DNA of 64,000 nt, taken from contig NC_057719.1 in NCBI RefSeq assembly GCF_004010195.1, forward strand, positions 21,857,895 through 21,921,894, given 5' to 3'. The notes under the pieces are model-generated. The model did no database searches. It was not told the origin of the DNA and was given only the letters and a program-made list of their open reading frames with translations. The translations under genes were made by a program, and so were the position numbers. Position 1 is the stretch's first letter. Every line of letters starts with the position of its first letter. The stretch comes from Chiloscyllium plagiosum. Lineage: Eukaryota. Shown in pieces: positions 29,258-63,389 of this stretch.

Positions 29258-30027
29258 AATTGTAGCTATTTAAAACAGTGGCTTTATTAGCATCCGAAAG
29301 GGTAGCAGTTAAGCATCACGGTCACGTGGGGTTAACGGTAATACAGATCCGATGATTCAATCATTTCCTGGTACATGCTAAGCATGCAGATACACAGATG
29401 CTGAAATTCTTTTGCCTGGCAGGTAAATGACAATGTTAAATGTCATCACTGCTGAGCTTACCATGCTGGCTATAATCATTGGGTAAAGATCTAATGGCCC
29501 AGCATTCTAAAAAGTTTTCTTTGCTCATTTGTGAGGTGTGAATGTCATTGGCCAGGTCCTTTATTGGAGGAGAAAGTGAGGTCTGCAGATGCTGGAGATC
29601 AAAGTTGAAACTTTATTGCTGGAACAGCACAGCAGGGATGCTGCCTGACTTGCTGTGCTGTTCCAGCAATAAAGTTTCAACTTTGATCTCCAGCATCTGC
29701 AGACCTCACTTTCTCCTCCAATAAAGGACCTGGCCAATGACATTCACACCTCACAAATGAGCAAAGAAAACTTTTTAGAATGCTGGGCCATTAGATCTTT
29801 ACCCAATGATTATAGCCAGCATGGTAAGCTCAGCAGTGATGACATTTAACATTGTCATTTACCTGCCAGGCAAAAGAATTTCAGCATCTGTGTATCTGCA
29901 TGCTTAGCATGTACCAGGAAATGATTGAATCATCGGATCTGTATTACCGTTAACCCCACGTGACCGTGATGCTTAACTGCTACCCTTTCGGATGCTAATA
30001 AAGCCACTGTTTTAAATAGCTACAATT
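29258..30027. repeat. 770-bp palindrome (377-bp arms, 16-nt spacer)
   Basis: 29258-29634 is the reverse complement of 29651-30027; mirror ORFs 29542..29724(+) and 29561..29743(-). Confidence 0.95.
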
Positions 30028-35147: not shown

Positions 35148-35525
35148 GTCATAGACAGAGAACACAGGGGGCTAACACCTTCAACATATTGTCTTGCGAT
35201 CACCATTGTTAACAGCTCACCCGAGAATGCAACTTTTAAAAAAAGGTTTTGTGACTTACACATGAAAGAAATGAAACTATCACTGTATTCTAACAGATGA
35301 AAGGCTTAACAGAAAATCAATGTTTCAATGTATAATTTCAGTTACATCACGCTGTAAATTTTTGCTATAAATTCTGTGTTACGATCGAGCCCTCCACTAT
35401 CTCCTGATGAAAGAGCGTTGCTCCGAAAGCTAATGTGCTTCCAATTAAACCTGTTGGACTATAACCTGGTGTTGTGTGATTTTTAACTTTGTGCACCCCA
35501 ATCCAACACCGGAATCTCCAAATCA
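35148..35525 (+). mobile_element. Family B PLE 3' end/pLTR
   Basis: Contains CTGATGAAAGAGCgttGCTCCGAAAGCTA at 35404-35432. Confidence 0.78.
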
Positions 35526-41600: not shown

Positions 41601-42454
41601 AAGGAATGGAGCATGTGAGCATAAGTGAGGTGGTGTGTGGACCCAGAGATTTACAGTACATGAACCTCAGTTTTATCAAATATTGAACATGTTTGAGATT
41701 CTTCCTGATGGTTAGAATGAAAGTGAGCACTGTAGGGTAGATGACTATCTGAGTGGTTAGGTATGCAGAGGCGGTAAAGACTAGTTTAGTAGGTGATGGT
41801 ATTGCAGCCCAGAGACTGGGCCATGTTCAGTCCAGCAGGTGAACTCAGTCCATGGATTTCAGGTAATTCAGTGTGCAAGCTGTGGAGTCGTCACACTGGA
41901 ATCTTGAGTTGGTAAGTCTCTATCAACCTGGTTTCAACTGAAGGCCACTGCATTACTATCTTAGACATGGAAGTGTGGTTATCATGGACTGAGGGAGAAA
42001 ATTGGGAGACCAACTGTCAAATAAAAGGTTTTGGATGGGAAAGAGGGAAGCCTGAAAGTTGATGGTTTTGGTAGGGACAGCAACCTGAAATAACCTAGAA
42101 TCGGAACATTAGTGGGGTGAAAGGGTGGGGGTGGGTGGGAGTGCTAATCCTGGACCCTGTAACTTACTTGTAGGGGTGCAAACTGGATATAAGTGCCATC
42201 TCGGAAGAAAGCTGAACACATTTACCATGGACGGAATAAGTTTCTTTTTTGTCTGTCGGGGCGGGTTGGATGTGGGTGGTGCTATGAGTCAAAGTTTGGT
42301 TGTGAATTGAGCTTTGGACATTAGCATCCTTGAATGAGCATGTGCTTCCTTGTCAAACACAAAGATAGAATGAACTTTTGCCTCCAGACAAGTGTATACA
42401 TATAAATGAAAATGCAGTCCCAAACACATGGTGGCTGTACATGTGGGACATTAG

Positions 42455-42597
42455 AGCTGAAAATGTGTTGCTGGAAAAGCGCAGCAGGTCAGGCAGCATC
42501 CAAGAAGCAGGAGAATCGATGTTTTGGGCATGAGCCCTTCTTCAGGAATAACACATTTTCAGCTCTGATCTCCAGAATCTGCAGTCCTCACTTTCTC
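42455..42597. mobile_element. Mini fold-back pLTR insertion
   Basis: TSD CATGTGGGACATTAG at 42440-42454 and 42598-42612. Confidence 0.85.
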
Positions 42598-43549
42598 CAT
42601 GTGGGACATTAGCACAGGCAAAGTCCTTTCACTAGACATTCCATTACCTTTGGCCTCAATACCCATCTCATTAAAGTGCTAAGACTAAGATGTCATAAAT
42701 AAGAGGTTTGAATGATCCCTAACTTCACTGCTATCCAGAAAGCTTCTCAGAAATGGACAATGCCTTGCTCATATAACTACTACCACTATTGGGATATATG
42801 AAGAGGGTGGTTAACTCTGAGGTGGTAGCCAGTCAATCAGATCCTCCAATTATCATCACAATCAATCAGATCCACAATGATTGAAAATGCCTATTTATTC
42901 ACAGAGAAGAAAAGGTATTTACAAAGAATTATCACCTGTAGTACCTAAATGCTGTCAAAACAGTTTATTTCTTTATAATTCCACTCTATCTTTGTGCATT
43001 CCTGTGATTCCCAGCTACGGAGGAAGGAGCCTGCACTATAGTTGACCTGGAAGATTTAGGCAGACAACTTCAGGGGTATTAATGGCTATAGACCCCAGAC
43101 ATGGCAATAGTATCATGCCACGATATAGGCTCACCTTCCTTGGTTGCAACTTGTACAAGGTTGGGGACAGAGTGAAGGTCTTCAAGCCTGACACCTGTGG
43201 AGTATAGGCAAAAGTGAGGACTGCAGATGCTGGAAACCAGAGAAGAATAGCATTACCCTGTCTCCTTCCAATGAAAGAGCACCTGAAGTAAAATTGAGGT
43301 CTCGTGTCCCCTTTCTTGCCATGATTATGATTAGCACCAATGGCTAAAATTATCAAATGCAGGTCTGCATTCATGAAGATGGCCACATGAAAGCATGCTG
43401 GAATCAACATGCGCTAATATTTAGAGGTTAGTTAACCAACCTTTAATTCTATTTCCTGAGTGCCTCTGATGACCTGACTGCTGTTCCTGTGTCTGTTCCT
43501 ACATTTGCACAAAGTTATTAATGGTCAACACTATGCAATCATTTTCTGC

Positions 43550-44830
43550 CTAGTACCAGGTCTCCAGATGTTCTCTGACTGCAGTGACCTGGATGTGCCA
43601 GAGATGTGTCAGTGATGTGCTCACGAAATTGTCCCACCGAATCTAACCGCGATAGAGTACCCGCCAAGGTGAATGTCTCTGAGCTTGTGGAAAATGCAGA
43701 AGAAAGTTTTGCAATCTATGAGAGATCTGTGGTTTCTTCCTCAGAGGTGGCGGAGGATCTGATGTGTCGAGGAGCCGGACACTCCAACAAGTTGGTTCTG
43801 TGGATGCTTTTGGTGCTTGCACCAGAGAGGTCATTAGTTAGTGCAACTGGGATAGATGTTTGAGCATCTTAAGATTACGTTAACAGAGGTGGTGATGGGA
43901 GAGGCGTCTAACACCACATAATGAGCTTACCTGATTCCCTGGACATCGAAATCTCAGTATCCCCACATATTTGGCTTTGATACTTTCCCGCCATCCTGTA
44001 GATATCCTTCTTAAAAGGAATGAGGATAAGAATGTTGATGACATCACTGTGTCATTCTCTTCTCTTCCCAGTTGAGTTATTTTCTCCTGCACTGAAACAA
44101 TAGGAAGGAATGAGTGTGATTGAAGGCTAATAGAAGACAAATAGTGATAGTGCAGGAGCAAGAGAGGTGTGAGGTACCCCCATTATTTGAGTGGGAAGTG
44201 AAGAGTGAAGGAAAGGTTACTAGCTTGGGAGTTCAGTAGAAATGCTGAATGCAGTGGAAGGTGACAGACCATAACCTTGGCAATATTATTGTGCAGTAGT
44301 AGAGCTTGAGTGAGTGCGTATATAGCAGTGAGAATGGTGACAGTTATCCTTGCAAAGTGTGCAGAGAGTCAATGATCTTCTTCCTGCATTGCTAATGTGT
44401 AACTTGGCTCAGAAAATGGCCCATGACTCAGGCAGCTCTCTGTTGGCTAAGTGCGTGACTTTGCTTCCTTTGCCTGTGTGCAGGAAAGAAAAAGAGCCTC
44501 CTTCTCATCCATCTCATCCTCAAATACCTCCAGGTCCCTGTTGGTGAAGTTGGGAGCAGATTTCCCTTTCTGGAATATGTAATTTCACTGATGGTCCCCA
44601 CGAGTACCATCCAGTGAAGGCCAGTTTGTGACTGCAATGTTCAAAGAGGTGCACAGCTGAGGTTTAAATATAGCAACAGTGGTATGAACAGTGTAAGTTT
44701 CAGCAATGGTAAGTAGTTTTATCTCTGCTCCAAGATGATGGCATGAGATGGGAGCCATGGACCTTGATAAAAAAAAATTAATAAGAAACATCACATGATG
44801 AAACAGCCACCACAAAACTCTCTGCAAATA
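43550..44830 (-). mobile_element. PIF/Harbinger remnant with Myb/SANT-like gene relic
   Basis: Minus strand: KGKSAPNFTNRDLEV... and QCRKKIIDSLH, then an acceptor-like TGCAG|GAGAAAATA (EKI..RE). Confidence 0.55.
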
Positions 44831-44859
44831 CTAGTAACCCTAGAAATGAGAAAATTCAG

Positions 44860-45600
44860 CCTTAAAAGAGGAAGAAAATAAGAGGAGCTAGCTAGAAATA
44901 TAATAACAGAAAGCAAGAGTTTCTAGAAATTCTTAAAATGGCAAACAGTAAATAAAATGAGTGTTAGTCCTCCAGATATTGTGAATATGGTGTTAATAAT
45001 AGGTAACAGGGAAATGAACAAATGCTTTGCTTCTGTCATCACTATATAGGATGCAGAAAACATTCCAGTATTAGGTCTACGTCAGGAGGGTGGAAGTGTG
45101 AGTGGAACTTTGGAACTTTACAATCGCTACTGAGTACTATTGAATAAACTGATAGAACTGCAGGCTGTCAAGTACATGGTTTCTAATGGACCTCATCCCA
45201 GTGAATTAATAGAGGTGACTCATGAGTTAGTAAGGTAAAAACAATGACTGCAGATGCTGGAAACCAGATTCTGGATTTTCGAAGCTCCTTGGATGCTGCC
45301 TGAAGTGCTGTGCTCTTCCAGCACCACTAATCCAGAATCATGAGTTAGTAACTACGTTGATGTTAATTTTCTAAAATTTGCTAAATTCTAGAAAAGTTCT
45401 GTCAAGCTAGAAATTGGAAAATATAACACCTCTGTTCAAAAAAGGGAATAATGGGTCAGTTAGCTTGATTCTGTCATGGGGAAGCTTATTGGAGTTGATC
45501 ATTTAGAAGGTTATAAATGAACACTTATAAAGTGGTAATGGGAAAGAGTCAGCATGATTTTGTCAATGTAAAATCATGTTTAACCAATTTATTGGAGCCC
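44860..45600 (+). mobile_element. Old CR1 ORF2 remnant
   Basis: Degenerate FASV, G.HP, NITPLFKKG and SQH.F...KSCLTNLLE motifs. Confidence 0.6.
45234..45337. mobile_element. Mini fold-back pLTR insertion
   Basis: TSD TCATGAGTTAGTAA at 45220-45233 and 45338-45351. Confidence 0.82.
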
Positions 45601-47615
45601 TTTAAATGAGTAAATGAGTAATATTTGCATTACAGCATCTCTGAGTAGAAAAAAAAGACATAGTATAGGGGTCTGGTTGAGAAGACCTGGGTTAAAGCCC
45701 CTTTCTGGAACATGATGGTCACCATGAGTAGCATCATGTGAAAGCCAGTTTGAGCCTGAAATATTCAAAGAAGTGGACAGCTGAGATTTAAATGTAGCAT
45801 CAATGCTATGAATGGTGGAAGGTACTAGCAGTAGTCAGCACTTTTACCTTTGCTCCAACATGATTGCATGAGCTCGGAGCAACGGGGATTGAATGCACAA
45901 TTGATGAGGTGAGCAGTGGAAATTTGCATTTGTAATAATATCTCTGAACAGGTTGGCTAGAAAATATCTAAAGGAATAATATTTGCATAAAAGCAGCTCT
46001 GGGCGAACGACAAAATAAAGATATAGCAAGGGGCTCTTGTGGCACAGTGGTAATGTCCCTTCCTCTGGGCTTGATGGCGCAGGTTCCAATCCTCTTTGCT
46101 TCAGATGTATGCTATAACATATTTGACCAGGTCAGTTAGAAATAAACAACAGAGTACATTCATTGCGAATAAAAGGAAGTCTGTAGATGGACTGAATTGG
46201 ATTTCTAGACATAAATGTTTTCTAAATCTAAAGCTTTTCACATTTGTGACATATCTGCAAATAGTGGGGCTTGATTTTCCCAGTAGGTTGTGACAGTAAG
46301 TAGATTCTTGTTATACAAGAGAAGCAAATTTTATTTAGGGTAGATGGGAATGTAGAATTTAAAACACAAATGAATCACCAATGATCATATTGAATGGCAG
46401 GACAAGCTCAATGGGCTGATTGGCCAGCTTCTGCTCTTTAGGTTGTGTGCACATTCAGGATCAGAAATTTAGGCAGAAAGGGTAAATGTTTAGGCACAAT
46501 CTTACTGATTGATGGAGTTCACTTGATGGGCTTGAGTCTATTCCTGTGTTTTCTTCTTCTTCTGTAGCTTTCTGTGGACCTGGATTATAAATCTGCAGAA
46601 GAACTACAATAAGCAATGTTTAAGCCTTGGAACCAGGTCAGCCATTGTGTCAATTCCAAAGTAATTCAAAACAGCTGTGGAATCCACCTCTAAAATCTGA
46701 ACAGTGCAACACATGAGTCAGAATTAGCATCACAATGGCAGGTGATAGTGCATAGAAAGCAACGTGCAACAATTCAAGTTATGCAATGTTGGTATAAAAA
46801 TATCCTGTCAGACAATGTCGTTAATGAAGAACAGCAATGGTTATTGATGTCACATCAGCCAGATGATGACAAACATAAAGCTAAGGTCACCTTTGCTAAT
46901 CATAAATTTTCATATTACTATACTTACTTCACTCCAAACGTACTCCATTTATTGTAAAATATTTGGGACATGCTGAAATTGTTTAAGATACTATACAAAT
47001 GCATTCCTTTCTTACTCACTCGTAGATTTTAATATGTGAACATAGGTAGCTGGCCTTCTATTAAACTGCGTCTAAAATTGTTTTTTATTTTCTGTACAAT
47101 GAAGACTGCTTTGAATTAGTTTATTGATGCCTGGTAACTTTAATATATATATAAGGCTTTAAATAGCATTCTTTTGAGTTAATCTCTCTTGAAACACAAC
47201 ATGTTAACTGCTTCCTTTGTTCAGTGAGTGCATAATTAGTTTCAATAAAGTTATACATGCATGGGTGAGATGAAAACCTTTGGCACTTCAGGGAGAAACC
47301 CATGAGCCTACAGTTATTCTCTTGTGCTTTTATTTACATAATTTGAGTCTAACTTTATTTTTAAAGATGCATTTTTAATTTGCCATGTACTGGTTTGAGC
47401 TTTATTTGTCTTGTTGTAAAAATCTTATGTGTTATGTAAAGAGCATAATCTTTTTATTTCCATTATTTTTGAACTGTGGACTAAAAGTCAAAAATATGGC
47501 TTTAAGCAACTGTAAAAGAGATGGCTGTAGTTTTTAAAATCATATTTACAGGAGCACCTTGTAGAATGTATACAATGTTGTACCTTTTTGGGACAGTGAG
47601 GACAAAAAACATTAT

Positions 47616-47950
47616 GGGCGGCATGGTGGCTCAGTGGTTAGCACTGCTGCCTCACAGCGCCAGGGTCCTGAGTTCAATCCCAGCCTTGGGCGATTGTCTG
47701 TGTGGAGTTTGCACATTCCCTCCGGGTCTGCGTAGGTTTCCTCCGGTTACTCTGGTTTCCTCCCACAATTCAAAGATGTGCAGGTTAGGTCAATTGGTCA
47801 TGCTAAATTGCCTGTAAGGATGTGTAGATACATTAGTCAGGACAAATATAGGATAGTGGAATGAGTTTAGGTGGGTTACTCTTTGGAGGGTCGGTGTGGA
47901 CTTGTTGGGCTGAAGGGCCTGGTTCCACACTGTAGGGAGTCTAATTCTAA
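47616..47950 (+). mobile_element. HE1-like SINE, full length
   Basis: A box TGGCTCAGTGG, B box GAGTTCAATCC; 3' end GAAGGGCCTG..TCCA is shared with CR1. Confidence 0.88.
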
Positions 47951-48799
47951 CAAAAGCAGACAGCACTGAACTGATGGCTTCTGACCTGAGGACAACTAAC
48001 TGATTATCATGCTTTGATTGGCTCCTGATCAGATGAGCATGTTTTATGGGAAGGAAGTGAAGCAGATAGCTATTCAATCTGCACAAGAGAAAGCATAGAA
48101 TGACTGTCTGTATCTCTCTCTCCCCCTCTCCTTCTTTTGTTGAGGTACAAGAAAGTCTCCAAAAACAGGTTGCTATCTCCATCCACCTTTATTTGAAAAT
48201 CCTCTGTTGAAGGTTAAATAAGATTCAAACAAATGGAAAGGATAAATTTGCAGCAGTGAGTGGAAGAGAAAATCATTATAACAACAGCCTTGTATCAATT
48301 GCAAAATGAACTGAAAGTACGAGAAAAAATCAAATCTTGTGGTGTAAACTGGTATTACTGAATTGTATTTCACTTTTTTTCCCCCTTTTCCACCCTAGAT
48401 GTGTATCTTAGGGTAACTATCTGCTAGAAAAGAGGAATTTACAAAGGGATAAAGTTCAGTTATGGAGGTATAAATTAGCAATTCACACTTCATTTTTGCC
48501 ATTGGTTAAAGACAATTTATTTTTAATGAACAGTTACTTTCTTGTTAAGTTCAAAAACTTTGAGTGATTTATTTTATCCTGAGTTTATCACTCAGATAAA
48601 TTGAAGACTTTAATGAACTTGACTAAATGTTTTATATTTTTGATGACTTTGGGAATAGTGTGGTTTGATTTCAGGGCATTTCTCCAGGGAGTAATGGCAT
48701 GTGTTGAATGAAGATTAACAGGAGTTTTTACAATGAATTCAGTGATAATTACCAATGATCAACCTTGCTGACTTGGAACTACTTATTTCATATTTGTAG

Positions 48800-49075
48800 A
48801 GTGCCAAATTCAGGCAGAAGATACAGAAGTTTGAACACATGCAGCAACAGGTTCAAGAACAGCTTCATCCCTGCCGTTATTAGATGGATGAATAGATGTC
48901 TGACTTCAAATAATGTTGATCTTGCTAATGTTTATCCTGCTCCTGTTGTAAACTGTTTGACTCACCGTGTCTTAGCACTCTGATCCAGATGTCCTTGTTT
49001 GCTATGATTTGCCTGTAGTGCTTGCAAACCAAAACATTTTACTGTATTAGGTACATGTGACTGCAATAAATCCAA
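48800..49075 (+). mobile_element. Rex1/Babar-type LINE 3' end
   Basis: SGRRYRSLNTCSNRFKNSFIPAVIRWMN C-terminal motif, followed by AATAAA. Confidence 0.7.
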
Positions 49076-49806
49076 TCAAGACAGATCGTTGAAAATACAG
49101 TAAAAATCTTGAAATGATAAATTGTGTTTAAGTTTATGATTTTTCAGTCTCTACCTTTTTCTCAGGCATATGTCCCAATTTTTATCTCACTCGATATAAA
49201 TTGAGTAAAAAGTGATAGACAATCAGTGTGTTTTTTCACTCCCATTAAGAAATAGAAAGAGCTGGAATAATTGAGCAGAAGAGAGAAATAGGGTTAATGT
49301 TTCCATTTGAAAATTATTCATCTTCAGAACATTCAAAACATTTCTTAAAAAGTCAATGAAATATATTAACCCCTTTCTGTTCTCTCAAAATATCCTGTCA
49401 GGCCTGCTTGAAAATTTCCAGCACATTTTATTTTTATTTCTCATTTTCAGCACACCATATTTTTTGATACTATTTTACTTCTAAATTTGCTGCCTGTGAG
49501 AGTTGTTCAACATGATTCATTGTTTATCCTGCTTGATGAGATTAGTGTGTTTGAATGCTGAAACTGGTACTAAAATAAAATTAAGATTGGCAAAGGTGAA
49601 ATGCATATCAAAAGGTTTGCTAGATCTTGGTAGGCAGCTATCTCAAACTTAATGGGCAAGTAACATTGCATTACTGTTAATAGTAAATTTTTTATTTCAG
49701 GATCACTAGTTTTTGGAAAGTATAAAAGAAGACTAAAGACTGTGAAGACTTTGCTTTGCTTATTGCTTTCTGAACTTAAATTATTAGAATAGGTAAGTAT
49801 GGTAAA

Positions 49807-49988
49807 TGTTGAGAGTATGGTGCTGGAAAAGCACAGCAGTTCAGGCAGCATCCGAGGAGCAGGATAATTGGCATTTCAGGCATGAAACGTCGATTTGCCT
49901 GCTCCTCAGATGCTGCTTGACCAGCTGTGCTTTTCCAGCACCACACTCTCGACTCTCATCTCCAGCATCTGCAGTCCTCTCTTTCTTC
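49807..49988. mobile_element. Mini fold-back pLTR insertion
   Basis: TSD AAGTATGGTAAA at 49795-49806 and 49989-50000; inverted arms. Confidence 0.82.
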
Positions 49989-50540
49989 AAGTATGGTAAA
50001 CGATTGTACTCTGCCTTATTGTCGCTCATTTGTCAGTCTGTAGCTTGGCCCTTAAAATTAGTATTACAATGTTTTGCAATACCTAGCAGCTTGCAAGAGT
50101 ACTGATAATATCTCCAGTGAGATGAAAACAGTAATACAAGTTCCTACTCATCAAAATACCAAATCCTAACCATTGAAAGGAACAAGATATTGAAAACAAG
50201 AAGAATCTGCAACATCAAACATGAGATCCAAACAAAGCTTAAAATCCCAACAATGCAATGATAGAAATCATAATTTTGAGGCATCCACAGACTAGCTTTA
50301 ATGATTGCAGTTTTATTGTATTGAATAGTCCAAGTAGGATGCAAATAGTCATTAGCAGAAGGTAATGGTAAAATGGTCTTTGGGGTTGATATCAGCGAAT
50401 TAATTGCAGTGTATCAAGTTAATTACATCCATTTTCATTGGGTCCCATTTTCCTCTTGCAGCACAAGGTAGTTTAATAACATAGTGAACTTTTGGATTAG
50501 AAATACATAACATTGCATTAAAATGTTAACCAATACACTG

Positions 50541-50885
50541 CCAGTGAAAGTTAAGCATTTTAAGAGGTTATAATCATCACAAATTATCAGACACAGTCTC
50601 AGTAGCCTGTCAATATTTGAAATGAAAATATATAGGATTGTAAAGGATTCACAGAAATGAATTTGAGGTCCTTAAAGAAACAAATGACAGTGTCAACTAA
50701 GACACTAAACCCTGACAAGTAGAGCCTCCTCATAATTCATGGCTGATTGCTCTATAGTTTATTCTAGTGCAAATTGAGCTGGAAATCTGACATTATTTTG
50801 CAGCAGTCATACCATTTTTCCTGAATTGTGCTGAAATAGAGAATGCAAAAGCTCAAAACATAAGTGCTTGTTCATTTGCAGCTGA
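50541..50885 (+). repeat. Copy 1 of a diverged direct duplication
   Basis: Aligns with 60885-61562; 50611-50676 vs 60955-61020 differ at 6 of 66 positions. Confidence 0.85.
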
Positions 50886-51189
50886 AGACTGGATTACTGC
50901 TTGAAGCATACTTACTAATGAATCGCTATTTGGATTGTACTTACGTATTGCATGTGTTTACTATTCCTTGTGATATTTTTAGCTTTCATTTAAATAAATA
51001 ATTGTAGTAAATTCTGGATTCTCACCCTTCTCCTGACTTGTCTGCATCATCATGCCGCAATTAACCATCATCTACAGAGGTTATTAGGACAGGCATGGCT
51101 TTGATAGTTTTCGGGACCAATAAACAAAAGCAAGGACTAGCTGCTGGGTTACTACTATATATTAGCCCTCTGTGGATTCAGTCGGCTTC

Positions 51190-51700
51190 TTTTTATTTGT
51201 TCACAGGATGTGAGCTTTGCTGGCGAGGCAAGCATTTATTACCCATTCCTAATGCCTTTGAAGAAGTGATGAGTTGCTTTCTTGAACTGCCTCGGTCCTT
51301 GGAGGATTGGATCGACTCACGGAACAATTTGGAAGAGAGTCCCAAGATTTTGATCCGCAGACTGTACAGAGATGATGATATAGTTCCCAGTCAGAATGGT
51401 ATGGTACATGGTACACAAGTATGGTACACTTGTCCATGCTTGTGGCCCTTATTTGCTCCCCCTGGTCTTTCTGGATGGTAAATGAAAGGTGCTGCCTAAG
51501 GACCATAAATGAGATGTTGCATTGTGTCCTGTAGCGTTATGTGGCGATTGAAGGAGTGAATGTTGAAGTTGGTGGATTCAGTGGCAGTCAAGCAGGCTGG
51601 TTTGACCAGGATGGTGTCAAGCACCATGAGTGTTGTTGGAACTGCGCTCATCCAGCCGAGCAGAGATCAATCCACCATACTGCCGAACTGTGCTGCACAG
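51190..51700 (-). mobile_element. Older LINE 3' end (38320 family)
   Basis: Reverse-complement similarity to 39550-40050. Confidence 0.55.
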
Positions 51701-52199
51701 GCTTCAGTAAGTTGGTCTAGTTAAATTAGTGAGGTTGAAAGAAAAACTGAAAATAAGTATATCTATATAAGCCTTTGCAAGACCACAGCCTTCCCAAGTC
51801 CTTTACAGCCAATGGTATTTGGAGAAATGTAGGCACTATCGTAATCAATGTGGGCACAGCAAGATCCCACTCACAGCAATATGATAATTACCAATCAATT
51901 TTTCAATGTATCATATTGATCAAGGAATAAATATTGGCCAAGACACTCCTTTTTTTCAAAATTGTGCCATGGAGTCTTTTATGCCCACTTTGGAAGGGGT
52001 CCGGGTGCACAGAGCCTCAGTTTAAATGTCTTCTGAAAGATGCAGTTGATTTCTTAACTGACCCTTACAGTGGTGCCAAGAGGGATTCATGCCATCACAT
52101 TCACACTGTGGCCCATAGGTTCTCCTGATCCATGCCCCACCTACAGAATCTGTGCTGAGGCCTCAAGTTTTTACACCTTAAATCATCGTCATTGACGAG

Positions 52200-53050
52200 G
52201 AGGGAAAAATCCGTATTGAAAAAGTAAGGTATATCGAAAGGTTTGTCAAAAGAAGGCACAAGGAGATTGCAGATGGATACAGATGTGTTAACTCTAGCAA
52301 ATAGAGTATAATATGGGAAAATGTGATGTAGTTCACTTTAGCAAGCAGAAGAAAAAAGGGGGAGTCTATTAAAATGCAGAATGACTGCAAAATTGTGGAT
52401 TGTTTCCAGTGTTCTAGTGGGTGAGTCACAGAGCTTATATGCATGCAGGTACAGCACATAATCATGAAGGCTAATGCAATGCTATCCTTTACTGCAGGTT
52501 GAACTAAAAATAAAAGTAAGGATGTTATCATCCAATTATAATCTTGAATACTGTCTGCAGTTTTGGTCTCCATACTTAAGGAAGAATGCAAGCGCATTGG
52601 AACTGGTTTAGAGGAGGTTGAGTAAATTGATGCCTGGAGTGAGTGTATTGCTTTACAAGAACAGGTAGGACAAGCTGGACTGGTTTTCACTGCAGTTTGG
52701 AAGAACGGGAGGTGATCTAATTGACGTATATATATATATGGTCTTGACAAGGTGGTTGTGTAAAGGATGCTTCCTCTTGTGGGTCAGTCCAGAGATAGGG
52801 GGCACTGTTTTAAAATTAATCTTAAATTTAAAAATTAATAACCTCTAATTTAAGATCAGCGATGAAGAGATTATTTTGTCTCAGTGGTTTGCATGACTTT
52901 AAAACTCTGCGTCAGTAGAGGAAGATAGATTCCTGTTCGGCAAGTGAATGAAATGTTATTGAGAGTAGTTGGGAAAGTGGAACTTGAAACACAAATAGAT
53001 CAGCATGATCGCATTGAATGCTGGGTTCAGGGGGCCCAATGATCTACTTC
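52200..53050 (+). mobile_element. Old CR1 3' remnant
   Basis: Degenerate KCDVVHF, KANAMLSF and QFWSPYLRK. Confidence 0.6.
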
Positions 53051-53194
53051 TTCAACTACTTTGTATGTGCATATGCCCGACACTTATCTCTGTGCCAGCT
53101 GGGCATCCAAGTCCGCCCAAGTTTGAAGGGTGCCCTATGTGGGATGTTTGAGTTATTCCTGTGTGGCCTATGAATGAATTTAGAATGATGAGGA

Positions 53195-53575
53195 GTTGTT
53201 GTACTGGGGTGGACAAAGTTAAAAATCACACAACACCAAGTTATAGTCCAACATTGTGATGCTGGAAAAGCACAACTGGTCAGGCGGCATTCAAGGAGCA
53301 GGAGAGTCGACGTTTCAGGCATAAGCCCTTCATCAGGAATGAGGCTTGGGGACCGGATGGTTGGGGAGTGGGGGGGGTGGGAGAGCGGGGGGAGTGAGGA
53401 AGCTGAGAGATAAATGGGTGGGGGTGGAGATGAGAGGGAAAATAGCTGGGAACATGATAGTTAGATGAAGGTGGGGGGGAAGGTGATAGATCAGAGAGGG
53501 AGTGGAACAGATAGGTGGGAAGGAAGATGGACATGTCAAGTGGGCTATAACCAGGTGTTGGGTGCTTTTTAACTG
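53195..53575. mobile_element. Composite of family B ends around a family A-type pLTR
   Basis: AAAAATCACACAACACCAAGTTATAG at left; inverted CTATAACCAGGTGTTGGGTGCTTTTT at right; hammerhead-like motif at 53305-53340 (minus). Confidence 0.65.
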
Positions 53576-55489
53576 AACTTAGAATGATCTTCATGCCTAT
53601 CTCTTCAGGCAGGTGAGTTCAGCGTACTGACCACCTTAAACCTTTGGTTGGGAGCTATCAAATAGAGATCCAACTCAATCTAAATATTCTTTTATATGAC
53701 CAATTGCTTTAAATATTATCTTTAAAATATTGACAAAACAGCTGTGCATTTTTTACTTTGAAAATTAGTTGCTTTATTTTAAAGTTCAGGTCTATATTAG
53801 ACATCATTATGTGTTAGAATACATTCCCCTTGGAGAGACATTTAGCTAAGCATAGCATTATTTAGCTGTCCTCCAATGTGACAAGCAGGTATTTTCCATT
53901 ACAATAGCATCACCGAGATGTCCTTTTTCTGTCAGCGTCCTATATAATTGTTTGCCCAAGAAAGAAAACAATTGAGATATAATTAGGTGCTGTTGAATAA
54001 GATAAAATGCACCTATTCACCATGGCTGGACTTTACAAAAGGTTCGAAATGAGTGTAAAATCCCATGTATCTAGTTTCATGACATCTGTGAATTAAATTA
54101 CCTACATCACTTATGAACCAGAAGCTTCAGACTTAGCAAGGTTTTCTCAAACAATAAAAAAGCACGGGAAATTCTTCTCCAATCATTCAAGGGAAATGCG
54201 TCTGAAATGTCAATGTGCTCAGTGGCAGGTTTAATTCAGGATGTGCAAATTCTTTATTTACGATGGAGAAGAGCCAGAAGAGTTACATATGCTTTTACAG
54301 GATCTGCTCTTTGTACCACAAGACTGGAAACACGAGACAATGAAGGGAAATTTGTGAGGAAAATATAATGAATCTTTTCTTGCATAATTGCAATTACATT
54401 GGAGAAACAACCAGGGCAAAATTTCAAAGCACCTTCTTTAGTATTTACAGCACACTGAAGGATGCAACGGTAACATATGTTTCTCAGTGATTAAGTGATT
54501 AAAATAAATATAACAGCAGCTGCAGCAGTTCAGGTGACAGCTGATAACAGCACTCGAACCCTGCTTTACAAACTCAAATGCTGACTATCAGCCATATCCT
54601 CTAAATTACTGCAGTGTTCAAATAGCAAACAAACCGATTTGAATAAAGAAAGTCAGCCAGATTGGGGTATTAATGACCAGCTTACTTGCTCATAGTTTAG
54701 ACGATTTGAAGTAATTAATCAGTCCCAGCCTCTGCTCAATGCCTGCTTCTCCATTACACGGAAGTCTGATATAACTAGTTAGGAATTTACAGGTTACCAA
54801 ATCTTTGACTTCTGATTACAGATGGGAAGTCTTGTCTTAAATTGCAAGGGGAGACTGAAGTCCCTGGGTTGTCTGTTTCTTAAATTCAAAGATCATGAGG
54901 ATAATTGTGAATGAGGAAAGCAATCTTACCTGATCCATCTGGAAAAAAATCCTCCTGCAGTGTTGCAGCTAAGTTTATTTTACAATTTTCACTAAGTTTT
55001 CTTATGCTACTTAGAAGTCCACTCTGTAAACTATTTCATTTTCAGCAAATATCTCCCAGATCTAAGTTATAAACTGTATATTCTGGTTCTGCTTTCACAA
55101 ATTAGTTTAACATACTATCCTGGAATTACCTTCTCTTGGTTGTTTGTTAACTTATATCCACCTCCGCTTTTGCTAAATTATGAGATGGCATGTCTGACAT
55201 CCAATACTGGAAAAGACATTTGGTACAATTTAACACTGGCAAAACCATTGTTTTTATGGTTCCTGCCACAAACTCCATTTCTAAGCAACTCCATTTCTAA
55301 GCAACTCCATTTTTTGCTCTGGCAACTAACTTTGACCCTGAGATGAGCTTGTAACCATATATCTGCATCCACATTATGTCCACTTATTCCCACCTCTGTA
55401 ATATCTTCCAATATCTTCCAGTTCCACCACAATGTCAGCTCATGTCTAATCTATCCTTCTGTTAACACTAGATCAAACTATTCCGTCTT

Positions 55490-55805
55490 AGTTAGAGTCA
55501 TAGAATTACACAGCAAGGAAACAGACCTTGGGTCCAAATTGTCCATACCGACCAGATATTCTAAACTGATCTTGTCCCATTTGTTCATGTCCCTCTAAAC
55601 CCTTCCTATTCATGTTCGCTTCCAGATGCCTTTTAAATGTTGCAATTATACCCACTCCACCACTTTCCCTAGCAGCTCGTTCCATTCACACACCACCCTC
55701 TGTGTGAAGAAATTGGCTTTCAAGTCCATCGTAATTCTTTTCACTCTCACCTCAAACCTATGCCCTCTAGTCTTGGACTCCCCACTTTGAGGAAAAAACA
55801 TCTTC
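55490..55805 (-). mobile_element. CR1 3' end inside an L2-like remnant
   Basis: GESKTRGHRFEVR...FFTQRVV..WNEL. Confidence 0.75.
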
Positions 55806-56071
55806 TTGATAGTCTTCCACATTCCACCTTCTATTGACTTGAGATCATCCAAAACTCTTCTGCCAATATCATTCTATGCCCCTGTGTTCCCTAACTTATG
55901 TTGGCTCCCAATCAAGAAATGCCTCCGTTTTATAGGTTCTATCTTTATTTTCAACTTCTCTAAAGGTTTACCTCTGCCTATCTTTGAAATCTTCTCCAGC
56001 TCTACAACTTACTAACATATACACATTACCCTAAATTTGGCCTCTGAAGCATCTCTGATTTTAATTGCTTA

Positions 56072-56398
56072 GGGGCAGCACAGTGGCTCAGTGGTTAGCA
56101 CTACCGCTTCACAGCGCCAGGGATCCAGGTTCGATTCCCATCTTGAGTGACTGTCTGGAGTTTGCACTTTCTCCCTGTGTCTGTGTGGGTTTTCTCCAGG
56201 TGCTCTGGTTTCCTCCCACAATCCAAAGATGTGCAGGTCAGATGAATTGGTCATGTTAAATTGCCCATATGCTAGGTGCGTTAGTCACAGGTAAACATAG
56301 GGTAGGGGAATGGGTCTGGATTGGTTACTCTTCAGAGGATTGGTGTGGACTTGTTGGCCCAAATGGCCTGTTTCCATACTATAGGGGATCTAATCTAT
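56072..56398 (+). mobile_element. HE1-like SINE
   Basis: tRNA head with A and B boxes; CR1-like tail. Confidence 0.85.
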
Positions 56399-56832
56399 AT
56401 CAGTGGCTATGCTGTTAGCTGTATTATCTTTAAACTTTTCAATTTCCTCCCTCAGCCACTTTTCTTTCCTCCTTTAAGAAGCTCCTTAGAACCTAAGTCT
56501 TTTGCCAAGTTTTTTGCTATTTGACCAAATATTGGTTTGATGTTCAAATCTGCTTCATAGTATTCTTCTGGAGCACCTTCATATGTTCTTATTATATTGC
56601 CTTATCACAATTCATCTTTTAGATATGCTGTTAAAAATCTGCCCAAATTACATCAAATAAGGAAGGAGAAAATCTTTGTGAACTTGGGTCTGAAAGTGAA
56701 GTGCATTTAGGAATAAAGAGTTTATGTTGTAATTCTCCCCTTTCACTCCTAACAATTTTTTAAAACCATCTTCTACCTTATTTTGCCAAACCTACTTTGA
56801 CATCAGGTAAATGTCTACTGTTTTAAAAAAAA

Positions 56833-57093
56833 ATGGCTCAGTGGCTCAGTACCGGGGTCCCAGGATCGCTTCCAGCATTGGGTGACTTCTGTGTGGAGTT
56901 TGCACATTCTCCCATGTCTTCTTGGGTTTCCTCCCACAGTCCAAAGCTGTGCAGGTCAAGTGAACTGGCCATGCTAAATTGCCCATAGTGTTAAGTGCAT
57001 TAATCAGAGGGAAGTGGGTTACTCTTTGGAGTGTCGGTGTGGACTGGTTGGGCTGAAAGGCCTGTTTCCACGCTGTAGGGAATCTAATCTAAT
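56833..57093 (+). mobile_element. HE1-like SINE (internally deleted)
   Basis: SINE body plus AATCT tail. Confidence 0.8.
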
Positions 57094-58321
57094 CCAATTT
57101 ACCTGATATCAAAATAGATCTGGCAACATAAGGTAGAAGGTGGTTTCATAACGCAAGGTGACTATTTCATTATATTATAAGTGGCACTGAGAAGATTCCT
57201 TGATTCCAAGGAATACTCACTACTGATTTGTCAAATACCTCAGCAGCATCCAACTTGATGGATCTTCCTGAAAAGAGCCAACCGTGGGCTCTTGCCATCT
57301 CTCCAGTTGATGGATGAGATCCTTGTCCCATCCATTAAATACCACCCACTGTTTCCAGTGGCAAAATGACCAATATACAAAGGAGCAGGTTTCAGTAACT
57401 AGCAAAAGAACTGCAGACAATGTGAGGATAACATTGTTATGCTCCTATTTATTACAATCCAGAATGTAATGGTTGACAAGATGAGGGAAGCAGATTTAGT
57501 GGTAACTTTCAAAAGAGCGTTGTATAAAATATTCAAAGCAGGGCTATGATGAAAAAGCAGGTTTAGGAGCCAACATAGACATGGTGGGCCAAATGCTCCT
57601 TTCTGCACACAACATTCAACAAGCTTATGATTCTAAATGTCGTAATTTGGGCCCCAGTCAAAAATGAGAGTCGGTAACTCCCCCATAAGCCAAAAGAAAA
57701 ATTCAGAGACTCATTGACTTGTCAGGGAAAAAAAGAACTAGCACTGGACTCTAACATTCTAATTTTGCAATGTTTAAATGGTGTTAATCCCCATTCTGTC
57801 AAACCGAAATGGGGCAGAGATCCAATTACCCCAATTAAAAATGAAATAAGCTGAGTCAATTGATGGCCTTATACCTATTCAAATGAACATTCCGCATGTT
57901 CTTACAAGTAAAGCGTAGTAAGGTTTGGACTTTTGTTCGGTACAACGATTTGTACGAGCTTTAGGTGTGTTGCCAAAGCTGAACAGGAGGTAATTATATC
58001 AACCTCTGGTCCACTCACAAAATCAATGAAAACCACAAACAATTGTTTTATGTATTTAAGAAAAGTCATTCCCGCAACTTGTTTTGACTTTTTTCACAGA
58101 CTTTCTAAATTTAGCTACTAAAAGTAGTTGTTGGGGAAAAAGGTGGAGATTATAGTACTTCCATGCATACAAGGAGAAAACTATATGTGGAAACTCTGCA
58201 ATGGTAAAATACTCAAGTAAACAAGATATTAGTAAAGAGAATCGTATCACTAATATTGATTTTTTAAAAACAAATTCCAACTTTTAATTCCCCACACTCC
58301 TTTTGGGATCTAAGTTCTACC

Positions 58322-59127
58322 GCTCACACTGTGAGTGCTATTGAGAGATAATTGTGTCTCATGTGCATTGCACTATTGCTCAAAGTACAATATCTTTGAG
58401 TTCTGCTGGATCAATAACAATTTAGAACAAAGCAGTCAATCTACAGTCTAGTAGGAAAGCAGTTGTTGCCATTGGCTATCTTCACTGAAGGATGACTGAA
58501 CAGAAAGAATCACCTTCTATATTGATGTTCACCTGTAGAAGCCACTGTGATGTAGAATGACTACATGGATGGATGGTGGTCAAGGCAGGCATGTGCATAC
58601 TAAGATGCAGAGGAGCAATGATAGTGAAGAGAGGCAACTTCATGTATAAAGGTGAGAGTCTGTAGAGCATTGCAGGACAGGGGTTTAGTGAAGGGTGGGG
58701 GAGGGAAAGTTGGGGGGGTGTCATCAGTGATCACAACAATCTTGGCTTTGACAAATGACCAGCATGTGGGGTCAGAGCTCAGGGTATGAAGTTGATTAAA
58801 TAGTTGGATGGGAATGTGTGGAAACTCAGTAATGATCGTGCTAATGGGATGTGTAAGAAATAATGAGAATGAATGATTGGAGTCTAATTACCACAGCTCA
58901 CATGGTGAGTGCTATTGAGAGATAATTGTATCTCATGTGCATTGTACTGTTGCTCAAAGTACAATATCTTTGAGTTCTGCTGGATCAGTAACAATTGAGA
59001 GCAAAGCAGTCAATCTATATTCCACTCGTGGAGCAGTTGCTGCAATTGGCTACATTGACGGATGTAGTAGAGTCACTGGAGGATGATTGATTGGAGAGAA
59101 TCATTGATGCCCACCTGCAAAAGCCAT
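58322..59127 (+). repeat. Direct repeat of about 230 bp (58322-58546 and 58896-59127)
   Basis: Cores 58331-58422 and 58905-58996 differ at 4 of 92 positions. Confidence 0.88.
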
Positions 59128-60108
59128 TATTAGAATACAGATTTCCAGCCTGGCTTGTGACTCACAGGATATCTTCCTCTGCGATGTCTTCCATTTTCAT
59201 ATGAATGCAAATGCGCAATAGAAATGGAAAATGGATGTGACTACATTCAGAGTGAGATGAGTAAGTGTTTGCTTTTGTATCTGAGCACGAGGACTCAAAG
59301 TGTGAGGGATGTGAGTCCTTCCAATGGGAAATTGCTTCAATCCAGCATCTTACTGACTATAATTTGAAGACATCTGGAATCATCCTGCTTGGGAAATGCA
59401 ACTGTGTGGGTTCGGATTACAGTTTACAAGCAATCTGGACCCTGTCATTGGTCACAACAGATTGATCAGAGTCATCTCTGCGAAGTAGGAATAATCACAG
59501 GTGATCTTATCACCAGGGAATCACAAACAACAAAGACAATCCAAGATGCCATAGGCTGCATGGAACTGACTTTTTCTCATCTTGGACTGTATTTATTCAG
59601 AAACATACTCTTTTACACAATGCTGCCTTTCTTGGTTGAATTGGGGGCTGGAGTGAATATGGGAGAGCAATACATCAATAATTATGTTGAATGTATAATC
59701 CCCTACTGTATTCCCATGATGTGGTTTGTACTGTATACATCAGAATAAGGCCCTCCATGTCATAGATACATGTAGCAGCATTCTGTGGCCCTCCTTGTTG
59801 GAGTTGTCCATGTCCCACTATACGGAAGACTACACTGAAGCCATCATGTGAATGCTGACTGATCACTTTACAATGAACCTGTTCTGTTTCTGAAATTCCC
59901 CTAACAGGTTAATTGAAACCATGCTCAATAGACTCATCCAAGGTAGGGGTTATTGTAGCTCTGGCCATGGTGTTGCAAATTTGCAGAGAGATCAAAAAGA
60001 GACAAATGCATCAACCAGCCTAGAATCAACAAGATCTCCCAACAGTCTCCACATGAAGAAGTTGTGGCTAGAGGTTCTTGCAGGATGCAAAGGAGGTTCA
60101 GAGGGGCC

Positions 60109-60870
60109 AGAGTCAATCTTCTTCAATGTCATTTTCTCCAGATGATTAAGGTGCAGTGTCACAGACTGCGAATGTCTTGGGGCACTATCATAGAAGTATG
60201 CCATCTGGTAGAGTGGGACTTATGACTTGAAATGGTGGATGGCCATCCTATCACAGTGGTTTAGTTGACATTGAGTTGATGGCCACGCTAAAATTTTATG
60301 TAAATAATTGTTTTCAAGGATGGATAGATAATTAGCAAGTTATCTCACAACAATTAACCCACAAATGTATTAGATTTGTTACTAATGCAATTTGAGCCAG
60401 ATCATGCTTTCAATTTTCTGAAGAAGAGTCATACCAGATTCGAAACATGAACTGGTTTTCTCTCCACAGAGGCTGAATTTCTCCAGGGTTCTCTGTGTTG
60501 TTTCCGATTTCCAGCTGTATTTTTGCTTTCATCTCATTTCTCCCTGATGAGGTCAGTGCTGCAGCCTGGGCAGTAGGCTTTGCCAAAATAGCTCACTTTC
60601 CCCATGGTTAAGGGTGCTTTAAATGGCAGCAGACTTCATCAACAGAAACGGTTCACGTTCCATCAATGTACAAGTCATCTCTGTTTATTGGTACCACATC
60701 TTAGGAGCCTGTACCAGACATCATGCAAGTTACCATGATATTCTTGAGAACTCTCAACTTCCAGCTTTGCTTCAAATTCTAGATTCTTTACAACAATGGC
60801 TGCTGGGGAAATAGGGCCATCCTTGAAATCATGGCTGATGACTGCATTATGCAAGGCCATGGCTAAGTCT
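60109..60870 (+). pseudogene. Decayed PIF/Harbinger (HARBI1-like DDE) transposase
   Basis: FLQM...QC.RLRMS..., ATLKFY...FQG...ISQ...HKCIR.VTNAI, GF..IA.FP.V.GA, FINRNGSRSINVQ...HD...SQLP, WLLG..GHP..WLMT; stops and frameshifts; pLTR scrap inserted at about 60412-60523. Confidence 0.78.
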
Positions 60871-60884
60871 GAGCCCATGCATTC

Positions 60885-61562
60885 CCATTGAAAGTTAAAT
60901 ATTTTAAGAGTTGATAATGATCACAAAGTTTCAGGTGCCTTAACAGTAGGCCATCAATATTTGAAATCAAAATATATAGGATTATAAAGGATTCACTAAA
61001 ATGAATTTGATGTCCATAAAAAAAAACTCATAGAATCCTTACAGTGTGGAAGCAGGCCATGTGGCCCATAGAGTCCACGCCAACTCTCCAAAGAGTCTTC
61101 CACCCAGATCCACTTCTCTACCCTATATTTCTTGTGGTTAATCCACCTAACCTTCACATCTATTGTCACTATGAGGCAATTTACCATGGTTAATCCACGT
61201 GACCAGCGCATCTTGGGACTGTGGGAGGAAACCCATGCAGACACAGGGAAAATGCACAAACACCATACAGACAGTTGCCCAAGGGTGGAATCAAACCCAG
61301 GTCCCTGGTGCTGTGAGGTAGCAGTGCTACGCACTGAGCCACTACATGACAGTGTCAAGCAAGGCACTAAATCCTGATAAGTAGAGCTTTCTCATGATTC
61401 GTGATTGATTGACCTATGGTTGGTTCTGGTGCAAATTGTACTGAAAATTCTACATTACTTTGCATCAGCCATACAATTTTTGGCAGAGCTGTACTGAAAT
61501 AAAGAATGCCATTAAGCTAAAACTCAAAGTATTAGTGTTTTACATCTGTCATTTGCAGCTCA
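60885..61562 (+). repeat. Copy 2 of the diverged duplication, split by a SINE
   Basis: Alignment with 50541-50885 resumes at ATGACAGTGTCAA after the SINE. Confidence 0.85.
61027..61345 (-). mobile_element. HE1-like SINE
   Basis: Reverse-complement SINE; absent from the paralogous copy. Confidence 0.85.
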
Positions 61563-62105
61563 GATATAGATTGCAGATATATTGTGGCTTGTTCTTCAAC
61601 CAAGGCCAGTGATAGAGCAGATGATAGACCTCCAGAAATTATAAATTCTCCATTTCTCACTGAAAGGGACCAATATTTTTTCTCTTTACATACCTGTAGA
61701 AACATTTACAATCAGTTCTTATGTTCCCCACAAGCTTATCTTATACCCTGTTTCCCTTTCCAAATCAATCGCTTGGTCCTCTTTTGCTGGTTTCTAAACT
61801 GTTGCCACTATTCAGGTTGATTGTTCTTTCTGCCATTTGCATAAAGCTTACATACAAGTGCAGCAGATAATAAAAAGGCAAATATGATATAACACAATAC
61901 AACATAGGAACAGGCCTTTCGGCCCACCAAGCCTCTGCCAATTCTAATCCTGGTTTAGACCTACCTAGTTATTGCCAATCTGTGGTTTCTATTCCTCTAT
62001 TTGCCTCCCATTCAAGTGTCTACCAAGATGCACCTTAAATGTTACTAACATGCCAGTTTCCATCAGCTCCACTGGCAGTGTGTCCCAGGCACCTACCACC
62101 CTCTA

Positions 62106-62286
62106 GGAGAAAGTGAGGACTGCAGATGCTGGAGATCAGAGCTGAAAATGTGTTGCTGGAAAAGCGCAGCAGGTCAGGCAGCATCCAAGGAGCAGGGGAA
62201 TCGACGGGCTCATGCCTGAAACGTCGATTTCCCTGCTCCTTGGATGTTGCCTGACTTGCTGCGCTTTTCCAGCAACACATTTTCAA
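62106..62286. mobile_element. Mini fold-back pLTR insertion
   Basis: Inverted arms; degenerate flanking duplication CCACC..CTAGGA. Confidence 0.8.
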
Positions 62287-62510
62287 CCCACCACCTAGGA
62301 CCAGTGAAAGACTTTTCCCTGCACTTTTCCCCTAAACTGTCTCTCTCTCACCTTGAAGCTGTGCCTAATTGTAGTCAACCTTTCCATCCTGAAAAAAGCC
62401 TTTAACTATTCACCCTATCTATGCCTTTCATAATTTTGTAGACTGCTATGATGTTGTCCCCTCAGCCTCTGACGTTCCGGTGAAAACAATCCGAGTTTAT
62501 CCAACATCTC

Positions 62511-62835
62511 AAGGCGGATGGATAGGGGTAGTAGACAAAGTATTTCCCTGGGGTGTGGGAGTCCAGAACTAAAGGGCATAGGTTTAGGGTGAGAGGGGAA
62601 AAGATTTAAAGGACCTAAAGGGCAGAAGGTGGTATTTGAGCTGTCAGAGGAAGTGGTGGAGGTCAGAACAATTACAACATTTAAAAGACATCTGGATGAG
62701 TATATGAATAGGAAGGGATTATAGGGATATGGGCAAAGTGCTGGCAAATGGGATTAGATTAGGTTAGGATATCTGGTTGTCATAGACAAGTTGGACCAAA
62801 GGGTCTGTTTCCATGCTGTACATCTGTATGACTCT
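62511..62835 (+). mobile_element. CR1/HER1 3' end
   Basis: Same 3' text as 12060-12357. Confidence 0.8.
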
Positions 62836-62921
62836 CATAACTAAATGCTCTAGACCAGGAAACATCCTGATAAACCTTCTCTGCACCCTCTCCAAAGCAT
62901 CCATGTCCTTCTGGTAGTATG

Positions 62922-63176
62922 AAAATGTGTTGCTGGAAAAGCGCAGCAGGTCAGGCAGCATCCAAGGAACAGGAGAATCGACGTTTCGGGCATAAGCCTT
63001 TCCTGAAGAAGGGCTTATGCCCAAAACGTGGATTCTCCTGTTCCTTGAATTCCTGAAGAAGGGATCATGCCCGAAACGTCGATTCTCTTGTTCCTTGGAT
63101 GCTGCCTGACCTACTGCGCTTTTCCAGCAACACATTTTCAGCTCTGATCTCCAGCATCTGCAGCCCTCACTTTCTC
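62922..63176. mobile_element. Fold-back pLTR insertion with tandem hammerhead segments
   Basis: TSD CCTTCTGGTAGTATG at 62907-62921 and 63177-63191. Confidence 0.85.
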
Positions 63177-63389
63177 CCTTCTGGTAGTATGGTGACCAGA
63201 ACTGCAATGCAATATTCCAAATGTGGTCTAATTTAAGTTTTAGACAGCTGTAACATAACTTGCCAACTTTTAAATTCAATTTCGCAGACGATGAAGGCAA
63301 GAGTACTATATGTCCTTCACCACCTTACCCACCTGTTTTGCCACTTTCAGGGATCAGTGGACCTTTACGCTCACATTCTTCTATATGTC

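Follow-up and report, generated by a model that had tools for sequence, protein, structure and literature searches.

How might short insertions built almost wholly from the two opposed ends of a retroelement have arisen? The question is raised by a 64,000-nt stretch of Chiloscyllium plagiosum DNA (contig NC_057719.1; hereafter the window), which is repeat-rich, of vertebrate type, and contains long interspersed nuclear elements (LINEs), tRNA-type short interspersed nuclear elements (SINEs) and Penelope-like elements (PLEs). Five elements in it (42455, 45234, 49807, 62106 and 62922), together with a sixth at 33472, each consist of two head-to-head arms of pLTR sequence, the pLTR being the 3′ end of a PLE. 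An original prediction had described them as pLTR ends in two orientations, and two opposed arms are indeed present in all of them; it had also proposed a ribozyme-defined non-autonomous class copied from short, hammerhead-processed RNA. We consider it probable that they are instead dead-on-arrival, heavily 5′-truncated PLE insertions, produced by dual priming from two fixed reverse transcriptase (RT) start sites followed by end-joining.

The reference pLTR is 4059-4302 of the window, numbered back from its 3′ terminus (-1 = 4302). Each insert, bounded by a target site duplication (TSD), is given below without a strand, followed by its arms; a tailed arm includes the terminal segment discussed below.

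42440-42612, insert 42455: 15-bp TSD, 42440-42454 and 42598-42612.
42455-42549, minus strand, tail-less arm of 42455: pLTR -129 to -35 with the full hammerhead, ending at the 5′ base of helix I; 95.8% identity to 4059-4302.
42550-42598, plus strand, tailed arm of 42455: pLTR -49 to -1, with a blunt junction to the other arm.
45220-45351, insert 45234, of another subfamily: 14-bp TSD, 45220-45233 and 45338-45351.
45234-45277, minus strand, tailed arm of 45234: pLTR about -44 to -1.
45274-45337, plus strand, tail-less arm of 45234: from about -97, with 4-nt microhomology at the junction.
49795-50000, insert 49807: exact 12-bp TSD; 3-nt microhomology at the junction.
49808-49885, minus strand, tail-less arm of 49807: extends to -113.
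49883-49988, plus strand, tailed arm of 49807: from -106.
62095-62300, insert 62106, within an old LINE: degenerate TSD, 62095-62108 and 62290-62300, matching at 11 of 14 positions with a 3-nt gap.
62106-62206, minus strand, tailed arm of 62106: pLTR -1 to -101.
62206-62285, plus strand, tail-less arm of 62106: pLTR -117 to -38.
62907-63191, insert 62922, in a LINE: 15-bp TSD.
62922-63001, minus strand, tail-less arm of 62922: to about -119.
63000-63048, plus strand, extra unit of 62922: pLTR -128 to -81.
63049-63177, plus strand, tailed arm of 62922: pLTR -129 to -1.
33457-34086, longer fold-back 33472: 15-bp TSD.
33472-33812, minus strand, tail-less arm of 33472: to -546 with an internal deletion; about 170 nt of endonuclease-coding sequence.
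About 33815-34072, plus strand, tailed arm of 33472.

The predicted exact TSDs of 15, 14, 12, 15 and 15 bp (42455, 45234, 49807, 62922 and 33472) were reproduced, as were the degenerate TSD of 62106 and the 14-bp, one-mismatch TSD of an older-family stub at 24446; exact matches of at least 11 occurred in 1 of 5000 random position pairs drawn from the window. The narrow range of TSD lengths holds, but the true nick stagger may be about 10-15 and not strictly 14-15 bp: in most TSDs, up to about one to four of the outermost bases on either side are shared with the terminus of the element. Most inserts measure 100-260 nt and are free of open reading frames (ORFs). At their junctions there is either microhomology of 0-4 nt or a little filler sequence, a pattern that end-joining would produce. 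The fold-back shape originally described holds as far as the inversion of the arms is concerned, but the overlap between the arms is a mere 17 nt in 42455 and 11 nt in 45234, so that these two are inversions and not real hairpins; large overlaps of about 70-190 nt occur in 49807, 62106, 62922 and 33472.

The two arms of an insert are unequal. In all six inserts of this first family, one arm reaches -1 and the opposite arm stops at -34 to -40, in agreement with the predicted pairing of one full-terminus and one truncated arm. The segment absent from the shorter-ended arm, the last 34-38 nt, is the published PLE tail. A further fold-back, overlooked in the original prediction, belongs to a second hammerhead-bearing family:

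53176-53588, no single strand, second-family fold-back: 14-bp TSD with one mismatch.
53190-53253, minus strand, its tailed arm.
53541-53574, plus strand, its tail-less arm; about 290 nt of first-family pLTR (minus strand, from near -40) lie at the junction.

The first-family block in this element starts near the first family's tail-less start site, pointing to a template jump across families. A tailed arm was thus opposed to a tail-less one in 7/7 TSD-flanked fold-backs analysed, from two families (p = 0.008 under an independent 50% choice per side). Outside this count are 29570 (both arms tailed, no TSD, duplicated flank), 1-1347, whose left end lies beyond the window, and an ancient pair near 49270. 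The last is an apparent older-family fold-back at 49270-49450, the left arm of which also stops just ahead of a hammerhead core.

The hallmarks of endonuclease-bearing (EN+) PLE insertions, namely an inverted pLTR, a one-sided tail of 30-40 bp and a TSD, are present in all seven. The original statement that inverted pLTRs are known in PLEs is correct: rotifer EN+ PLEs are described with an inverted pLTR, a 31-bp tail on one pLTR and TSDs of 8-10 bp (PMC3846280), the combination is given as typical for PLEs (PMC8557442), and inverted pLTRs and short extensions are presented as standard for curators (PMC8969392). With the canonical EN+ unit as described in the first two papers, our inserts share the head-to-head pLTR, the tail at one end, the TSD around the unit, the variable 5′ truncation and the partial tandems. 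They differ in being mostly 100-260 nt long without an ORF, in having TSDs of 12-15 bp instead of the rotifer 8-10 bp, and in a pile of arm ends at the 5′ edge of the hammerhead, which does not figure in those two descriptions of the unit.

Dual priming would proceed as follows. The element protein would nick both target strands some 12-15 nt apart. RT would then be primed on uncleaved element RNA by the 3′-OH of each nick, the two nicks using different ones of the two fixed start sites that bracket the tail. The two cDNA 3′ ends would then be joined head-to-head by end-joining. More tentatively, the short arms might reflect RT primed on a pLTR copy near the RNA 5′ end that ran off the end of the RNA at about -129, probably the transcription start, and trimming or pausing within the hammerhead might have produced the ends between -100 and -128. 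The Drosophila Penelope transcript is reported to start inside the upstream pLTR (PMC2377424), which would place RT start sites near the RNA 5′ end as well as the 3′ end.

Two known systems come close to this scheme. The protein of PAc, the Poseidon element of the lizard Anolis, is reported to nick and extend both strands, to have two internal RT start sites that bound the tail, and to be a predicted dimer; hammerhead mutants insert normally, and the RNA substrate is uncleaved (PMC11167929). PAc belongs to a clade other than that of the parent here, which carries a CX4CXXC linker, and the account of PAc insertion neither assigns the two starts to the two strands nor reports a start-site difference between the strands, whereas the two start sites are mixed in 7/7 inserts here. 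LINE-1 twin or dual priming likewise involves two priming events at two nicks, an inverted piece inside TSDs and little or no microhomology (PMC2837659). In LINE-1, priming takes place at poly(A) and at an internal site that varies, and an internal deletion results; the inserts here have a fixed second site, near -35, and overlapping arms. Among the passages on PLE insertion found in the literature, none ties two start sites to two nicks or reports a 5′-end pile at the hammerhead 5′ edge.

Which element supplied the protein? Two longer copies lie in the window:

1-1347, plus strand, PLE copy of parent type: long fold-back with its junction in the ORF, made up of an inverted ORF piece (3-260), the region coding for a GIY-YIG endonuclease, a pLTR and a partial tandem pLTR.
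3392-4310, plus strand, single-arm 5′-truncated PLE copy: ORF end and pLTR (4059-4302), with an internal N gap and an 8-bp TSD.

The pLTR that follows the ORF piece matches the insert arms at 85-98% identity. The endonuclease of 1-1347 gives a weak Pfam GIY-YIG match (E = 1.6e-4, 22.3 bits against a cut-off of 22.6), and the motif is readable in the translation. Homologues of this ORF piece are 545-900 aa long with 44-52% identity, and a precomputed RT domain is listed in 6/11 of the longer ones; upon rescanning, RVT_1 was found in 3/3, in each case below cut-off, with GIY-YIG after it in 2/3. No RT core was found within the window. Both ORF pieces (1-1347 and 3392-4302) carry a CX4CXXC linker ahead of the endonuclease. 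Since a CX2-5CxxC zinc-finger-like linker between RT and endonuclease is reported for Neptune and Nematis and is missing from Penelope/Poseidon (PMC8557442), the sequence of the parent fits Neptune or Nematis, and the inserts would accordingly derive from an EN+ PLE of Neptune (or Nematis) type. The originally proposed PLE origin, through PLE RT/endonuclease, is supported.

The same layout occurs with ORF sequence. The fold-back junction of 1-1347 lies about 800 nt into the ORF, and the description of the elements as ORF-less fails for the inverted arm of 33472. Moreover, the six first-family inserts in the window have six different junctions, and no single internal structure amplified as a unit was found among them. 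Because ORF-containing arms share the layout and no two junctions match, the short inserts do not form a separate non-autonomous class; they represent the short end of a continuum with ORF-containing copies. The single-arm, non-inverted copy 3392-4310 has a TSD shorter than those of the fold-backs, and four other single-arm copies have no TSD above 5 bp.

Could the inserts have become short after insertion? By this account, they began as units with an inverted pLTR and a pLTR-ORF-pLTR arrangement, from which the ORF was removed either through recombination of the direct pLTRs or through a deletion at microhomology. Both solo pLTRs and microhomology deletions have been described for PLEs (PMC3846280), and erosion is real in this window, as the internal deletion in 33472 and the following locus illustrate:

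43205-43242, minus strand, tail-only stub: pLTR -36 to -5.

Two related organisms, B and C, carry at least 84 further letters at this locus, so that the stub is probably what a deletion has left; it looks as though the paired part of a fold-back had dropped out. Contigs of organisms A, B and C were compared over 42200-45600, which covers two of the five elements (42455 and 45234). Insert 42455 was entered from its flanks into the arms in each of the three. Single contigs of B and C pass directly from 45219 to 45338, so that insert 45234 and one copy of the 14-bp TSD are missing; in organism A, a contig from a second sample leads into the element, with only the left junction shown. Insert 45234 is therefore a clean insertion that postdates the separation from B and C, and it is short in the window. 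This empty site and the different junctions uphold the original view that the inserts were built at or near integration. Furthermore, tailed arms of 44-49 nt offer little homology for direct-repeat recombination, the TSDs are intact, and deletion leaves the pile at -129 unexplained. We consider post-insertion deletion unlikely as the general origin of the short inserts.

Paralogous sites were also inspected; gapped alignments to LINE paralogues were noisy and usable for the SINE case and one LINE stretch only. The LINE that hosts 62922 is uninterrupted in a paralogue at about 21380-21420 (about 70% identity), and the search for an empty site paralogous to that of 62106 gave none that was usable. 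The SINE case is the following stub, whose TSD motif is present as a single copy in four SINE paralogues:

24432-24590, plus strand, older-family stub 24446, in a SINE; its second arm is not clear.

In the three genomes, 535, 818 and 1057 contigs pass out of the element into mixed flanks precisely at -1, which favours dual priming; the contig joints listed, by contrast, were dominated by artefacts of a reference that is itself a fold-back. An unrelated local direct duplication of 186 nt (58303-58488 and 58877-59062, 85% identity) has no connection with the fold-backs.

A second possibility is self-priming, in which one cDNA or antisense transcript folds back and copies itself into the inverted arm, as has been proposed for rotifer PLEs on an antisense template (PMC3846280). 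The 1-4 nt of microhomology at several junctions would suit it, and a 377-nt perfect palindrome at 29258-30027, with 311 nt of flank, resembles such a product. A copy-back arm must, however, sit wholly inside the first arm. In 5/6 first-family inserts the 5′ reach of the tail-less arm exceeds that of the tailed arm, which alone has the tail, so that neither arm can be a copy of the other; this mutually private sequence argues against simple self-priming and for two priming events on RNA, one per nick. The small overlaps in 42455 and 45234, and the blunt junction in the former, also speak against it, and self-priming appears quite improbable to us. The palindrome itself is a 100% inverted repeat around a young pLTR fold-back (29570), the arms of which are both tailed and end at -67 and -81. 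Because it takes in the flank on each side, it may represent self-primed cDNA copied into the flank, or an assembly artefact.

What, then, is the part played by the ribozyme? The reference pLTR contains the following motif:

4174-4209, plus strand, minimal type I hammerhead motif found by descriptor scan: CUGAAGA core at -125, 4-bp stem II, GAAAC-GUC and a self-complementary ACGU.

From this motif, the cut of the putative ribozyme is predicted after -98. The minimal type I hammerheads described from PLE pLTRs share its CUGANGA core, short helix I, unpaired base before stem II and palindromic 15.2/16.2 (PMC4209133). That account notes opposite-strand hammerhead pairs 100-700 bp apart and many single motifs from truncated PLEs, and its description of them does not extend to insertion anatomy or TSDs. 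An Rfam scan of the window reported no hammerhead; all five matches were sub-threshold microRNA models lying on hairpins, including 29600-29685 and 62956-63053. We rejected microRNA genes as candidates, since these matches are sub-threshold, lie on fold-back hairpins and are likely false, and we rejected an identity as miniature inverted-repeat transposable elements because the arms are retroelement 3′ ends with unequal termini. Pattern scans gave no match in viral contigs or in a first metagenome scan; the 48 loci of a second metagenome scan, with similarity past 34 nt in 0/48, were treated as chance. Minimum-energy folding of the pLTR RNA was not better than that of shuffles (z -0.68 to 0.70).

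The count of arm ends took in 20 arms from the first family group within the window. Other families were excluded, as were the stub at 24446, the remnant at 43205 and the inverted arm at 3-260. Three arms were entered at -116, -120 and -122, where alignment puts them at -113, -117 (or -120) and -119, with bins unchanged. A single arm is also present in the window:

17873-18002, minus strand, single tailed arm ending at -129; no TSD found.

Ten of the 20 arms end within -129 to -93, a rate about seven times that elsewhere (p about 5e-5 by arm; 6/10 by element, p about 2e-4). The sharpest pile, of 4/20, is at -128/-129, the hammerhead 5′ edge, 31 nt upstream of the cut; no arm ends between -130 and -254, and only one ends within 2 nt of the predicted cut. 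The original expectation of turn-around points at or near the hammerhead, varying among copies, is thus borne out by the enrichment within the motif and by the differing junctions, but the turn-around is not at the cleavage site, where copies of a ribozyme-defined family would start. In the five elements, 9/11 pLTR segments reach the predicted scissile bond, and seven of these nine clearly carry the bond and upstream sequence. The left arm of 62106 runs 4 nt past the cut on a mismatch-free parse and ends at the cut if one mismatch is allowed; the only segment that can start at the cut site (exactly -97) is the right arm of 45234. Because 7-8 of the 9 segments run through the scissile bond, the template was mostly uncleaved RNA.

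The stop at -129 might most simply mark the RNA 5′ end. An initiator-like YYANWYY places its A at -129, with a T-rich element 32 nt upstream, and the second family has a TATAAA 33 nt before its corresponding stop point. Copies of other families apparently stop just ahead of the core at 6541, 30841, 60418, 27925 and about 49297, the upstream sequence being known for the second family only. That family (6296-6547, 6897-7080, 30788-30845 and 35339-35522) has a longer stem II and its own 3′ tail, and its TATAAA box lies 38 nt upstream of the hammerhead core. Loose contig ends at 42460-42465 and 42549 are a mixture of subfamily differences and real termini.

Could the ends within the motif reflect pairing of two templates? 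In such a dimer, two RNAs would pair through the hammerhead ACGU, each nick would prime its own RNA and both RTs would stall at the interface. The ACGU is self-complementary, two pLTR copies co-fold with contact through this region, and minimal hammerheads have been proposed to act as dimers (PMC4209133). The arrangement would account for the large arm overlaps and for ends inside the motif, and in 62922 a stem II loop base sets one of the three segments apart, although the change may have been acquired afterwards by mutation. A stall at the interface predicts ends 3′ of it, at about -97 to -101, and not at -129, and a dimer alone does not explain the pairing of one tailed with one tail-less arm; we regard it as very unlikely.

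The proposal of a non-autonomous class mobilised in trans from cleaved RNA fares worst. Apart from the enrichment of ends in the hammerhead and the two arm ends at or within 4 nt of the cut, it finds some encouragement in a vertebrate precedent, the tandem, non-coding, hammerhead-bearing non-LTR retrozymes, which are reported to be related to PLE pLTRs (bioRxiv 10.64898/2026.07.22.740005). Those are head-to-tail tandem units, each with a hammerhead, whereas the inserts here are head-to-head with unique junctions; at least two consecutive head-to-tail units with complete hammerheads were not found in the window, where only 62922 has one 50-nt tandem hammerhead unit, once. With the bond mostly crossed, the pile upstream of the cut, no amplified unit, no tandem array of hammerhead monomers, ORF sequence in the same layout and hammerhead cleavage dispensable in vitro for the lizard PLE (PMC11167929), we find this proposal hardly tenable.

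Several points weigh against dual priming with end-joining. First, the four large arm overlaps require strand displacement or two RNA molecules, and classical L1 twin priming is described as leaving an internal deletion instead of an overlap (PMC2837659). Second, 29570 has two tailed arms, and the trend towards a longer tail-less arm, taken alone, is not significant (5/6, p = 0.11). Third, the sample is one window with 20 arms that are not independent within an insert, and the bins relating arm ends to the hammerhead were set after the data were seen. Fourth, the supporting in vitro data come from a Poseidon-clade element, a clade other than that of this parent. As to the RNA 5′ end, the initiator motif is common, at 12 per kb in the window, and hence weak; a polyA single-cell RNA run, of which about 2% was read, showed no pile of molecule starts or ends; and the contig comparison cannot tell truncation at -129 from subfamily differences, because its reference ends at -129.

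The architecture itself is thus already published; its regular shape offers a testable hint of how a PLE primes both strands. The origin of tandem and inverted PLE structures has been named an open question (PMC8557442). We tentatively entertain, as a possibility that we would not favour, that the inserts are a fossil read-out of PLE integration, in which one complex nicks the strands about 14 nt apart and uses one start site per strand, and the run-off cDNA of the 5′ pLTR, similar to retroviral strong-stop DNA, is sealed as a stub or jumps template. If this is true, one event would account for the TSD length, the inverted pLTR and the one-sided tail, and the run-off cDNA would end at the transcription start just ahead of the hammerhead. 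Template jumps would build partial tandems (62922 and 1069-1347) and chimeras (53176-53588). The partial tandem units at 1062-1347 and 63000-63048 are consistent with RT jumping back on the template, the second restarting after reaching -129. As a class of element, these inserts are ordinary, and they warn annotators that such hairpins give false microRNA-like matches. Thousands of short, TSD-bounded copies per genome would allow the rule of one tailed arm, the stagger length and the wall at -129 to be tested without new experiments.

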